IMG/VR virus record: IMGVR_UViG_3300038608_000013
Span: 1-43,693 of that record
From: a virus
Taxonomy: Duplodnaviria; Caudoviricetes
Direction: 5' to 3' (one strand)
DNA length: 43,693 bases
Below are positions 16,510-20,383 of the stretch, piece by piece. Every line of letters starts with the position of its first letter. The stretch's first letter is position 1. The translations under genes were made by a program, and so were the position numbers. The notes under the pieces were generated by a model, which was not told the DNA's origin, searched no databases, and worked only from the letters and a program-made list of their open reading frames with translations.

Positions 16510-16965
16510 ATGAAAAAATGCAAAATATGCTTCGCCGAAAAATCGTTTTCGGATTATTACAAAGGACACGCGCAGTGCAAAAAGTGTTACATCGCAAAAG
16601 TAAAGAAATACAGCCTTGAGAATTCCGACAAAGTGAAGGCTTACGACAAAAAAAGATTCAAGGAAGACCCTCGCGTATTGGCGAGGCATAAGAGGTATGC
16701 GGCTTCTGCTGCTGGTAGAGCGGCGGTGAACAGGGGGAAGGCGGGATGGGTTAGTCGCAACCGTATCAAGAAGGGCGCGGCCGCGATTGTAGGAAACGCG
16801 GTGAGGGATGGCCGGCTAATCAGGCCGGATGCGTGCGAGGAATGCGGGTCAGGCAATGTACACGGCCACCACGATGACTATGCGCTGCCGCTGGCTGTGC
16901 GCTGGCTGTGCGCAATGTGCCACCGTAAGTGGCATAAGGAAAACGGGCAGGGCGCGAACGGGTAA
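16510..16965 (+). CDS. HNH-type endonuclease with N-terminal Zn finger
   Basis: CKIC...CKKC, then CEECG..HGHHDDY..PLAVRWLCAMCH..WH. Confidence 0.8.
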   Translation: MKKCKICFAEKSFSDYYKGHAQCKKCYIAKVKKYSLENSDKVKAYDKKRFKEDPRVLARHKRYAASAAGRAAVNRGKAGWVSRNRIKKGAAAIVGNAVRDGRLIRPDACEECGSGNVHGHHDDYALPLAVRWLCAMCHRKWHKENGQGANG

Positions 16966-17007
16966 ATCATGGAAACAAAACTCTGTCCATTCTGATCGGT
17001 GCGCGCC

Positions 17008-17313
17008 ATGAAGACCAAACCCTGCCAATCCTGCGAAACCGCTAAGCCTCTGGCCGAATACTACGCGCACGTCTCCGCAGCGGACGGACTGCGCGGCAAG
17101 TGCAAGCCGTGCATGCGGCGGGAGGCCATCGACAACCGGGCGCGCAAGCTGGCGTATTACCGCGAGTATGACCGGGTGCGGGATAGGCGCGAGGATCGCA
17201 GGGCGGCTAAGATGGCATATGCGGCAACGCCAGAGGGCAGGAGTGCGTTGAAGCAGGCAAAGCGGGAGTGGCGGGAGCGCAACAGGGTTGACCACGCCGA
17301 CGAATCGCGCTAA
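17008..17313 (+). CDS. Zn-finger protein paralogous to the N-terminal half of the upstream HNH gene
   Basis: CQSC..K.L.EYY...CKPC...EYD..R...YAA..EGR; no HNH domain. Confidence 0.65.
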   Translation: MKTKPCQSCETAKPLAEYYAHVSAADGLRGKCKPCMRREAIDNRARKLAYYREYDRVRDRREDRRAAKMAYAATPEGRSALKQAKREWRERNRVDHADESR

Positions 17314-17765: not shown

Positions 17766-17800
17766 AGGGTATTACCCTGGTGGGGAGGGTGTGGTAGGAT
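17766..17800 (+). promoter_or_regulatory. Candidate array promoter with palindromic operator
   Basis: Extended -10 TG-G-TAGGAT (17792-17800) puts +1 near the first repeat at 17806. Palindrome AGGGTA-T-TACCCT (17766-17778) covers the -35 position. Confidence 0.5.
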
Positions 17801-17805
17801 GCCGT

Positions 17806-17950
17806 GAGCCACTCGCCTTAAGACACCCATGGGAGTCAAGCGAGCCATACCCCACAAGACACCCAAAGTAGCGAAGCGAGCCACAAGTTGAAAGACACCC
17901 ACTATGCGTAAGCGAGCCAATGTGCTAAAGACACCCACGGTTCGGAAGCG
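17806..17950 (+). ncRNA. TIGR-like dual-repeat guide array 1 (4 x 36 nt)
   Basis: Units GAGCCA-N8-AAGACACCCA-N8-AAGC at 17806, 17842, 17878, 17914. Spacer pairs: CTCGCCTT/TGGGAGTC, TACCCCAC/AAGTAGCG, CAAGTTGA/CTATGCGT, ATGTGCTA/CGGTTCGG. Confidence 0.9.
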
Positions 17951-17979
17951 TTGACCGCAAGTTGATCACTAGGTAACAT
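17951..17979 (+). promoter_or_regulatory. sigma70-like promoter for the tas gene
   Basis: TTGACC-17 nt-TAACAT starting immediately after the last repeat. Confidence 0.7.
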
Positions 17980-17987
17980 GAAGAAAG

Positions 17988-18095
17988 GCTGTAGCAGGCC
18001 GAGACAAATTGCAGCTAAAAAATGCCAGCGTCTATGTCCCGAAGCGCCCGCTGTGGCGCTAACTGCTACCGGGGCATGGGCGTTGGCATTTTTTT
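17988..18095 (+). promoter_or_regulatory. Structured 5' leader RNA of the tas gene
   Basis: ~24-bp stem 18017-18040 with 18071-18094 whose only non-Watson-Crick pairs are G-U; inner hairpin AGCGCC/GGCGCT. Confidence 0.65.
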
Positions 18096-18106
18096 GGAGC
18101 CCAATC

Positions 18107-19036
18107 ATGGACAAGAACGCATTCAAATCCCGAGCTACCACCTGCGCCATCACAGGCGCGATCCTCCCCGAAGATCTCGCCCTATTCGACGTTGACCGCG
18201 TCATCGAGAAACACCAAGGCGGGATCTACACCCCCGAAAATACCCGCGCGCTGACCGCACGGGCACACATGGAGCGCCACGGCAACCTGCGCGAGCGCGG
18301 CGAATGGCTGGAGGAACTCAAGTCGATCATGGACGACCGATCCCAAACCATGAAAGTGGTGCTGAAACTCAATAACCAGTTGCTCGCCTACCAGCGCCAG
18401 ACAGACCACGCGCGGGAATCGACGGAAGCGTTTCTGTCGGAGACGCTGGAGACCGTACACAAGCGGCTGCGCAAGATCGATGCTGAGGTCACGAAGCACG
18501 TCAAGTCCAGTGATGATCCGCTTGTGTTGGCCGCGATGGGCGTTGTAGGTGTTGGCCCGATCACGGTCGCCGGGTTGCAGACGTATATCGATCTGGAGAA
18601 GGCCGGGTCAGCGTCGGCGGTGTGGAAATATGTCGGCCTTCACGCGGCATCCCATGAGCGATACACCAAGGGCGAGGCGGGCGGCGGCAACAAGACCCTG
18701 CGCACGATCATATGGAACACCGCCAACAGCATGACGAAAAACCGGGACTGTCCCTATCGCGTGGTGTACGATCAGACCAAGGACCGCCTCGCCGCGTCAG
18801 AGAAGGTGGTGAAGTCGCGCAATACTCAGGGCCACCTGGTCGAGGTGCCATGGAAGGACACGAAGCCCAGCCACCGGCACGGAGCAGCCCTGCGCGCGAT
18901 CATGAAGCACTTCCTTGCTGACTACTGGTTTGTGGGCAGGACGCTGGCCGGGCTGGATGCGCGACCGTTGTATGTCGAGGAAAAGCTCGGGCACTCCAGT
19001 ATTGTGCGGCCTGTTGAGCGGGGCTGGAAATACTGA
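18107..19036 (+). CDS. TasH-like protein: HNH-like domain + coiled coil + Nop/IS110-like RNA-binding domain
   Basis: Start at 18107 (GGAG RBS), 309 aa. N-terminal DVDRVIEKHQGGIYTPENTRALTARAHMERH is HNH-like. GVVGVGPITVAGL, SASAVWKYVGL, GNKTLRT, PYRVVYD and HGAALRAIMKHFLADYW match the Nop/Transposase_20 pattern. No DEDD RuvC domain seen. Flanked by 36-nt arrays. Confidence 0.85.
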   Translation: MDKNAFKSRATTCAITGAILPEDLALFDVDRVIEKHQGGIYTPENTRALTARAHMERHGNLRERGEWLEELKSIMDDRSQTMKVVLKLNNQLLAYQRQTDHARESTEAFLSETLETVHKRLRKIDAEVTKHVKSSDDPLVLAAMGVVGVGPITVAGLQTYIDLEKAGSASAVWKYVGLHAASHERYTKGEAGGGNKTLRTIIWNTANSMTKNRDCPYRVVYDQTKDRLAASEKVVKSRNTQGHLVEVPWKDTKPSHRHGAALRAIMKHFLADYWFVGRTLAGLDARPLYVEEKLGHSSIVRPVERGWKY

Positions 19037-19253
19037 TAGCCAATACGGAGAAGACACCCATAGCTCTGAAGCGAGCCACGAAAGGCAAGGTACCCACTAA
19101 GTTGAAGCGAGCCAAAAAACCCAAGTCACCCAAGCTCCCGAAGCGAGCCAAGAAATAGAAGACACCCATGAAGCCCAAGCGAGCCACAGCACAAAAGGCA
19201 CCCAGTTGATTGAAGCGAGCCACGACTTGTAAGACACCCAACAAGCGCAAGCG
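19037..19253 (+). ncRNA. TIGR-like dual-repeat guide array 2 (6 x 36 nt)
   Basis: Begins on the base after the tas stop. Units at 19037, 19073, 19109, 19145, 19181, 19217. Spacer pairs: ATACGGAG/TAGCTCTG, CGAAAGGC/CTAAGTTG, AAAAACCC/AGCTCCCG, AGAAATAG/TGAAGCCC, CAGCACAA/GTTGATTG, CGACTTGT/ACAAGCGC. Confidence 0.92.
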
Positions 19254-19255
19254 TA

Positions 19256-19284
19256 TTGACATGCCCGCAGTTGGGCAATAATCT
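19256..19284 (+). promoter_or_regulatory. sigma70 promoter of the replication operon
   Basis: TTGACA-17 nt-TAATCT; the spacer holds inverted repeat TGCCC-N6-GGGCA. Confidence 0.75.
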
Positions 19285-19288
19285 ACAA

Positions 19289-19441
19289 GTGCCGGCCTTG
19301 CTATCCGGCACCGCAAACGGTGACCAACCATGATGAATATCAGTCGCCTGAAGATCGAGGAAAAGGGTCCACGCCGTTCCTCCGTTGCGGTTTGCGCCCC
19401 GCTCAGGGTAGCTCTTGAGCCCTCGATCTTGAGGCGATTGA
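19289..19441 (+). promoter_or_regulatory. Structured leader RNA occluding the replication initiator RBS
   Basis: Two 5' hairpins, then a 21-bp stem 19340-19360 with 19421-19441 that contains the GAGG RBS. Confidence 0.65.
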
Positions 19442-20383
19442 ATGACTAGACCAATCTTCTCATGGCGTCACGCAATCCTGAAATCTGAACTGTCGCCAAC
19501 CACCAGGCACGTACTGCTTACGCTTTCGTGCCATATGAATGACGCGGGAGAAAGCTGCTTCCCTTCCATTGCCACGCTTGTCGAAGAGACCGGACTTAGC
19601 CGGTCGTCAGTAATAGCCCATATCAAGTTGGCTAAGGAATCTGGTTGGATAAGGGTCGGGTTGCATGGGTTTGGCGGCCAGAAGTGGAAGTCTCACGAAT
19701 ACACAAGCGCGATACCTGATTCTGTTTTGTACCTCGAAGGTGGTCCAGGAGGTAGACCACCATTATCAGAAGGTGGTCCAGCAGGTAGACCAGCAATGGC
19801 CGAAGGTGGTCCATCTCCTGACAAAAAGGTGGTCCAGCAGGTGGACCCTATCTCTACAAGTACTAACTCCACATTAAGTGATAACTCCACAAGAGACGCG
19901 CCGCCTATCGGCGACCCTGTTATCGACCCACAACCCTCTTTGCCGCCTAAGCGCAAGAACCCGATATTCAGCCCAGCGCTTATGGACCTTCCTGAGTGGC
20001 TGGACGGCGAGCTATGGGCGGCATGGTGCGAAGAGCGGGCCGACAAGCGCAAGCCGATAACCTACCGGGCCGGGCAGTTGCAGCTCAAGAAGCTGGCCGA
20101 GTACCGGAATCAAGGATTCTCGCCGCAGGAGGTGATCGAGCACAGTATCGCCAGCGGATACCAAGGGCTATTCCCACCGAGAGGTAATCAGCATGAAAAC
20201 CGCAGATCAAATAGCAATGGATTCAATGCAATCGACCCAAACGACGAAAGCTGGCTTACCGATGATGCCCTCGCCTACATCGAGAGCGGGCGAGAGATCG
20301 GCAACCGTGTCCGCGCTGGTAAGCCGTTGCTTCGACGGGATGACGACGGTGTGTACCGCTTGGCGACAGGCGACGATGGGTGA
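19442..20383 (+). CDS. Replication initiator (N-terminal HTH, lambda O-like role)
   Basis: LSPTTRHVLLTL...CFPSIATLVEETGLSRSSV HTH, internal iterons, C-terminal W..W...R..KRKP...SIASGYQGLF. Confidence 0.85.
   Translation: MTRPIFSWRHAILKSELSPTTRHVLLTLSCHMNDAGESCFPSIATLVEETGLSRSSVIAHIKLAKESGWIRVGLHGFGGQKWKSHEYTSAIPDSVLYLEGGPGGRPPLSEGGPAGRPAMAEGGPSPDKKVVQQVDPISTSTNSTLSDNSTRDAPPIGDPVIDPQPSLPPKRKNPIFSPALMDLPEWLDGELWAAWCEERADKRKPITYRAGQLQLKKLAEYRNQGFSPQEVIEHSIASGYQGLFPPRGNQHENRRSNSNGFNAIDPNDESWLTDDALAYIESGREIGNRVRAGKPLLRRDDDGVYRLATGDDG
19736..19848 (+). repeat. Iterons / putative replication origin
   Basis: Four AAGGTGGTCCA-N-GAC repeats (19737, 19770, 19803, 19826; first three at 33-bp period) followed by an A/T-richer stretch. 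Confidence 0.75.

Follow-up and report, generated by a model that had tools for sequence, protein, structure and literature searches.

A phage locus of the SpTasH kind with 8-nt spacers and a ninth-slot A read as a repeat base

Background

In the window, i.e. the whole stretch of 43,693 nucleotides of viral DNA analysed here, a single gene is flanked on either side by short arrays in which eight variable letters alternate with repeats and each variable stretch is followed by an A. The question raised by this locus is how many letters of each half-guide stand for target DNA, and whether the A at the ninth position belongs to the spacer or to the repeat. A sequence-only reading had left two options, namely an 8+8 subtype of the TIGR guide systems, or a 9+9 type whose fixed A imposes a target motif or records a bias during acquisition. 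It had also taken characterised tigRNAs to carry 9-nt spacers. This premise was incomplete: 9 nt applies to the TasR and TasA systems, but SpTIGR has 8.

The 35 ORFs that were scanned against PHROGs included portal, terminase, head-closure, recombination and O/P-like replication genes, and the 43.7-kb contig most likely represents a whole tailed-phage genome.

Organization of the two arrays

The frame CCA-N8-AAG was present in 20/20 spacers, which form ten guides in two arrays (Table 1). Array 1 consisted of 8 such half-units with an exact 18-nt period (box C at 17809 to 17935) and array 2 of 12 half-units with the same exact period (19040 to 19238). A further match at 19121 is out of register and reflects a chance overlap. 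Elsewhere in the 43.7 kb the motif occurred 14 times on the plus and 12 times on the minus strand, so that 8 and 12 consecutive copies with exact spacing lie far beyond chance. The earlier statements that CCA precedes and AAG follows every spacer with only eight positions varying, and that edge and loop repeats share AAG-N4-CCA at an 18-nt sub-period, were exact for both arrays.

The four guide units of array 1 and the six of array 2, each 36 nt long, are located within 17807-19253. A unit is composed of half an edge repeat, the 8-nt spacer A, the loop repeat, the 8-nt spacer B and another half edge; its ends were set by analogy with the SpTasH guides given in Table S3 of PMC12045711. The edge repeat AAG-CGAG-CCA, with CGAG as its middle, was constant within both arrays, and in each of them the first edge was truncated at its 5' end and the last one at its 3' end (AAGCG). 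The loop repeat read AAGACA in 7/10 guides. AAGGTA, AAGTCA and AAGGCA were found once each and all in array 2, as had been noticed before. CCA and AG were present in edge and loop repeats alike. Taken as a whole, the locus shows the features by which dual-repeat TIGR-Tas loci are recognized: two alternating short repeats, spacers A and B, 36-nt units and an adjoining tas gene. An A at the ninth slot in 20/20 half-guides has a p of ~3e-11 if the slot is free (A at 0.30) and of ~0.01 at the clade rate of 0.80.

Table 1. Coordinates of features at the TIGR-TasH locus of the window
Feature	Position	Strand	Remark
-10-like hexamer TAGGAT	17795..17800	+	7 nt before the 5' end of the first guide; putative promoter function
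TIGR array 1, four 36-nt guide units	17807..17950	+	units 17807-17842, 17843-17878, 17879-17914, 17915-17950
Invariant ninth-slot A (example), first letter of AAG	17820..17820	+	repeats every 18 nt in both arrays
Sigma-70-like promoter TTGACC-17-TAACAT	17951..17979	+	adjoins the 3' end of array 1; predicted promoter of tasH and array 2
Structured 5' leader of tasH	17985..18101	+	small hairpin and long terminator-like hairpin with T tract; common to SpTIGR
tasH, 309 aa, HNH, coiled-coil and Nop domains	18107..19036	+	225/309 residues identical to SpTasH, no gaps
TIGR array 2, six 36-nt guide units	19038..19253	+	three loop variants; begins 1 nt past the tasH stop

The tasH gene and its product

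The start of tasH was placed at the ATG which aligns with M1 of SpTasH; the listed ORF starts at 17978. SpTasH was the best PDB match of the product over its full length (E 7e-155), and the SpTasH protein of phage CGphi29 was also the best among the 4 phage records matched. A Nop match (PDB 9MTY, E 1e-13) covered residues 157-346 of the longer ORF. The residues D28, D30, R31, N45, H54, H58, Y289 and H296 of SpTasH were retained, as were 9/9 DNA-contact and 4/4 dimer residues among those checked. The RNA-contact positions of the Nop domain were the same at 8/10 sites, with K167 and K180 of SpTasH replaced (K167G, K180A). The position printed as H182 for SpTasH is S in both proteins according to our numbering. 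H54, H58, N45, D28 and R31 were invariant across 43 aligned proteins, and mutation of H54 results in a dead SpTasH (Guan et al. 2026, bioRxiv 10.64898/2026.08.11.744272). The family comprised 699 proteins at E <= 0.001. On this protein evidence we assign the gene to TasH of the SpTasH clade.

Comparison with described TIGR systems

SpTIGR-TasH of the Salicola phage CGphi29 (NC_020844; PDB 9W02-9W04, 25QK, 25QL) encodes a 309-aa HNH-Nop protein with 73% identity and no gaps. CGphi29 and the window have the edge repeat, the 8-nt spacers between CCA and AAG and the 36-nt unit in common, and in both the same structured leader is located before the tas gene. The loop consensus differs by one letter (middle ACAC against ACAA). 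The synthetic SpTasH guides of Table S3 likewise carry the edge repeat of the window and a loop one letter apart (Faure et al. 2025, PMC12045711). In the window arrays are found on both sides of tasH and the cassette lies before a replication gene, whereas CGphi29 has an array downstream only and its cassette follows the major head gene. No spacers common to both were found.

The guides of SpTIGR are described with 16 variable nt, and no targeting motif is described in the flanks of TasH targets (Faure et al. 2025, PMC12045711). This is in line with the pairing of '8 nt Spacer A' in the cryo-EM structure of SpTasH and a mismatch series running from MM1 to MM16 (Guan et al. 2026, bioRxiv 10.64898/2026.08.11.744272), and with a numbering in which position 17 of the target is where the duplex sets in again (Zhou et al. 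2026, PMC13421893). The published numbering, rather than oligo sequences, thus suggests that the laboratory target of SpTasH is a gapless 16-bp site. An A occupied slot 9 in 18/20 parsed SpTIGR units of the CGphi29 array.

The 8+8 option was hence right as to spacer length, but it had already been catalogued for SpTIGR, whose edge repeat is identical and whose loop is one letter off; the earlier reading had itself named a catalogued grammar as an outcome that would speak against it. The guide grammar is thus a published one, and the locus of the window is a TIGR-TasH of the SpTasH kind and no new subtype.

The systems TaTIGR-TasR and FpTIGR-TasA are more distant in design. According to Faure et al. 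(2025) their 36-nt unit is composed of two 18-nt halves as in the window, box C is CCA and the box D slot ends in G. Common to them and to the clade of the window is also a repeat middle of 4 nt, in which pairing of the outer bases is seen for the edge repeat (CGAG or TGAA in this clade); across the homologues analysed here the edge middles alternated between CGAG, TGAA and TGAG. In contrast to the 8-nt spacers of the window, the TasR and TasA systems have 9-nt pairing spacers and an 18-bp target, their box D is UG instead of an AG behind a mostly fixed A, and their nuclease is RuvC or missing, whereas TasH carries HNH. The box motifs are reported to diverge together across systems (Faure et al. 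2025, PMC12045711). Spacers of 8-10 nt are considered allowed in a recent preprint, in which natural targets and acquisition are stated as unknown (Xu et al. 2026, bioRxiv 10.64898/2026.09.09.750476).

The ninth slot in homologous loci

To describe the ninth slot across the clade 110 tas loci were collected, excluding the distant locus L013. Four or more units at the 18-nt period were present in 94 of them, and 70 non-redundant loci with 1171 units were analyzed. Slot 9 was A in 1017, G in 87, T in 42 and C in 25 units and carried 1.25 bits, compared with 0.07 bits or less for each of slots 1-8. Slot 10 was A in 1170/1171 units, a figure that the search pattern partly constrains for slots 10-11; a parser with slot 10 left free resulted in A at 0.80 in slot 9 and at 1.00 in slot 10 (602 units, 44/49 loci). 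Slot 9 was invariant in 29/70 loci, 28 with a fixed A and one with a fixed G. AG was the majority box D in 68/70 loci, and the edge and loop middles of the window were common to 11/70.

Free variation at position 9 in homologous arrays, which had been named as the observation that would speak against a fixed A, was therefore not what we found, since the slot is clearly biased. The description of the A as fixed holds for the window itself but is too strict for the clade. In 33 loci the divergence per locus was 0.13 for slot 9, 0.15 for the loop middle and 0.59 for slot 8. The slot thus behaves as a repeat base, close to the loop middle and far from the neighboring spacer position. A comparison of slot-9 divergence with loop divergence gave a Spearman coefficient of 0.34 (p 0.055). 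The A at the ninth slot is read as a base of the repeat.

Some loci depart from the common pattern. L044 carried a G at slot 9 in 9/9 units, and in L034, L015, L027 and L042 the slot was loosely held (e.g. A in 12/29 units of L034). L013 of the Microcystis phage Mvi-JY20 (PP438412) encodes a Tas relative annotated as hypothetical, with 29% identity and a match only beyond the HNH region; it is followed by a short array (2694-2765) in which an A precedes TG or CG in 4/4 units.

Geometry of the target site

If both halves of a guide derive from one DNA site, spacer A joined to the reverse complement of spacer B should read like phage DNA at the correct distance only. De-duplication of 672 guides, among them the 10 of the window, left 655 from 84 loci, which we analyzed with Markov models of phage ORFs against shuffles of partners within each locus; positive controls recovered every true gap. 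The full junction test gave a z of 4.99 at gap 0, -0.63 at gap 1 and -0.12 for the 9+9 reading. Two other models, trained without loci picked by pattern, yielded 4.06 and 6.02 for the gapless reading and -0.39 and -0.49 for 9+9, and a test of reading frame alone gave 2.4 at gap 0 and null results at gaps 1 and 2. Six other joins of the spacer pairs of the 655 guides were null or negative. The gapless signal was present in both halves of the loci (z 2.8 and 3.2) and in the groups with fixed and with variable slot 9 (z 2.8-3.2). Furthermore, the dinucleotide ratios at the junction tracked those of phage genomes (Spearman 0.74, p 0.001).

The size of the effect was ~40% of that in a control of coding DNA, a reduction that chimeric or drifted guides, or guides taken from non-coding DNA, would account for. 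The 10 guides of the window alone, too few for the purpose, showed no junction signal and their mean leans to gap 1. Considering the guides of the clade together, each guide likely stands for one unbroken DNA site of 16 bases.

If the halves join without a gap, the target continues with an A in only 3/20 half-guides of the window. Clade-wide, the base facing a fixed A was A in 294/1134 cases compared with 330/1310 overall, which argues that the fixed A is not derived from the target. The junction test does not separate copying from selection for a match. Overlaps between the 8-nt halves of the 655 guides were not supported (1 base: 184 vs 172 expected, sd 10; 2 bases: 38 vs 42; 3 bases: 16 vs 12), nor was there an excess of complementarity between the two slot-9 bases (43 vs 42).

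Search for natural targets

Four of the ten guides were scanned against viral contigs for exact matches with gaps of 0-2. The 148 matched loci formed 98 clusters, 26 with gap 0, 53 with gap 1 and 19 with gap 2. For 3/4 of the scanned words the preference for gap 1 was predicted by a codon-phase model, although the matches lend no support to the gapless reading either. None of the matched loci (0/148) had DNA similarity to the window, and 12 showed distant protein similarity. We read these matches as background, and no natural target was identified, either for these four guides in viral contigs or in the window itself. Within the window, 10 near-matches to the published geometry with at most 3 mismatches (best, 2 mismatches) were present outside the arrays, compared with ~10 by hand calculation. 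Spacer sharing with the loci L001-L050 was limited to single-spacer look-alikes with one mismatch.

These results bear on two other geometries. In a 9+9 guide the fixed A at position 9 would pair, and every target would carry a central AT as a target motif or a strict acquisition motif. The register of the window does match that of the 9+9 systems (CCA-N9-NG-N4), TasR tolerates gaps of 1-2 bp in its target (Faure et al. 2025, PMC12045711), which makes a functional gapped site conceivable, and the array of L013 has its A before TG or CG throughout. We nevertheless consider this reading highly improbable. The junction test was null for it with all three models, although a true 2-nt gap was detected in the control, and null as well where slot 9 varies within the locus (z 0.01). 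Natural 18-bp sites with central pairing of slot 9 thus find no support in this indirect, statistical test. SpTasH pairs 8 nt in the published structure, and a G replaces the A throughout L044. A central AT was found in 0/19 of the match clusters with a two-base gap, which are mostly chance matches and count for little. With the gapless 8+8 reading positive and both the 9+9 and the 1-nt-gap readings null (z -0.1 to -0.5 for 9+9 against 4.1 to 6.0), the fixed A imposes no target motif, and this part of the earlier interpretation is not supported.

A 17-bp site, in which 8+8 guides leave a gap of 1 bp, would be equivalent to a 9+9 site with a one-base overlap of its halves. It was the commonest class of matches for all four scanned guides (53/98 clusters), but the codon phase of the matched words predicts most of this excess, and the matched loci lack DNA similarity to the window. 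Since the junction test was null at this distance in the 655 guides (z -0.63 and -0.47) while its positive control worked, such a site is likewise very unlikely. We therefore retain the gapless 16-bp reading with 8 nt paired per strand.

Exceptions at the ninth slot

The half-guides with a letter other than A at slot 9 behaved differently from those with the fixed A. In 71/176 cases this letter was the first base of the partner half-site, compared with 50.4 expected (sd 5.1), and the same comparison at offsets 2-8 was null. More loci were above expectation than below (29 and 16). The excess persisted without the three strongest loci (z 2.9), after stricter de-duplication (69 vs 48.8, z 4.0) and when stratified by the letter's own slot 8 and GC (p 0.0002). 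A C at slot 9 matched the next target base in 19/32 cases. Altogether the excess covers ~1 in 6 of the non-A cases. With its non-A letters partly linked to the target, slot 9 is no pure repeat base.

The idea that position 9 records acquisition is thus given some support by the exceptions in homologous loci and none by the A itself. As a possible trace of spacer writing, slot 9 may mark the boundary of the copied tract: a single site would be the source of both halves, whose 3' ends meet there, and the A of the repeat would normally be kept and sometimes overwritten by one extra target base. A guide would then be a contiguous 16-bp piece of foreign DNA split mid-way with its second half inverted, the copy occasionally running one base too far over the A. 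This proposal refines the gapless 16-bp reading and replaces nothing in it. The match of the non-A letters and its restriction to the adjacent position speak in its favour. On the other side, most non-A cases are left unexplained, a random mutation followed by selection for one more base pair would look no different, the literature consulted describes no acquisition machinery, and the window itself contains no non-A case. We regard both the boundary and the copying mode as tentative and somewhat doubtful. If true, acquisition would for the first time be seen to leave a footprint in sequence, and natural targets could be rebuilt by rule. In the literature passages searched, no published report of the ninth-base excess or the junction statistic was found.

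Regulatory elements and genomic context

The hexamer TAGGAT upstream of array 1 is retained in relatives without the cassette, where it continues into the leader of the replication gene. The search for sigma-70-like promoters returned one candidate compared with 0.8 expected in shuffled sequences, which is weak if taken alone; SpTIGR has a TTGACA box at the place matching TTGACC of the window. In the window a TTGAC box (17951, 19256) comes directly behind the half edge repeat that closes each array, an arrangement that would restore a promoter for the next gene.

Copies of the tasH leader were found in the window, in L012 (2999-3116) and in L203, L204, L251, L263 and L267. The leader precedes tasH in four collected loci, and L263 and L267 carry it without a tas gene in the collected stretch. 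The loop of its small hairpin is complementary to an invariant internal-loop stretch of the long hairpin, and two-sided changes were present in 11/34 predicted pairs among 6 aligned copies. From this predicted fold the leader is possibly an attenuator or a pseudoknot switch. Rfam gave nothing at gathering score in the window, with two chance snoRNA matches at E >1.

The leader of the O-like replication gene (19286-19445) has the same layout of two hairpins with complementary loops. A model derived from the leaders of tasH did not recognize it, and this replication-gene leader had no match in GenBank phages. Inside the replication initiation gene, 33-nt repeats with palindromic parts are located at 19736-19857; they are likely iterons of an origin, comparable to those in the O genes of lambdoid phages. 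The tandem genes 16510-16965 and 16999-17313, which lie shortly before the cassette, match one and the same PHROG endonuclease family (phrog_2340).

Variation in related phages

Contigs of related phages, mostly single contigs of low depth, were compared at the locus (8 comparisons, 7 runs). In the runs X7 and X8, which come from two studies, array 1 differed from the window in spacer A of guide 4 (17920-17927) only. Here 6/8 letters were exchanged including the first and the last, while the following A and spacer B were unchanged. That the change is confined to one full 8-nt slot speaks for the 8+8 reading. Recombination between identical loop repeats would explain such a single-spacer swap. 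In X6 guide 3 had a different loop middle and two different spacers, and in X9 98 letters stood in place of 134, with one unit fewer.

A contig of run X15 joined 17780 to 19291 and lacked 17781-19290, and loose ends of the same kind were present in X5, X6, X9 and X12. Some relatives thus have an empty site, and the cassette is an accessory insert located just upstream of the leader of the replication gene.

Proposed working of the locus and its significance

What is established here is the array grammar, the identity of the protein with its retained residues for catalysis and processing, and the statistics obtained on guides of homologous loci. Based on these, we put the probability at roughly 0.88 that this is a dual-repeat locus of the SpTasH kind, whose ten 36-nt guides would direct an HNH nuclease dimer to unbroken 16-bp sites with 8 nt paired per strand. 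By analogy with SpTasH, array 1 would most likely be transcribed from a promoter with the -10-like box in front of guide 1, and a second promoter behind array 1 would drive the structured leader, tasH and array 2. TasH is expected to process the transcripts itself inside the edge repeats through the pair Y289/H296, which would release the 36-nt guides. The Nop domains would bind CCA as box C and AG in the box D slot, and a TasH dimer would assemble on each guide and pair 8 nt with each strand of the 16-bp site. Judging from the 73% identity to SpTasH, both DNA strands would be cut and a flanking motif would not be needed. The A of the ninth slot preserves the 18-nt geometry of the half-unit of the 9+9 systems and is read as a repeat-derived base whose pairing is not needed. 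The cassette is probably used for cutting competing phages or other mobile DNA.

As such, the finding adds one more SpTasH-like locus with a grammar that was already known. The junction statistic goes further, since it fixes the natural site geometry of the clade (gapless, 16 bp) without any target match. Together with the ninth-base results it bears on the source of spacers and on their targets, questions which the papers cited here call open. The ninth-base excess, the single-spacer swap and the relatives with an empty site provide concrete leads on the acquisition and turnover of spacers.
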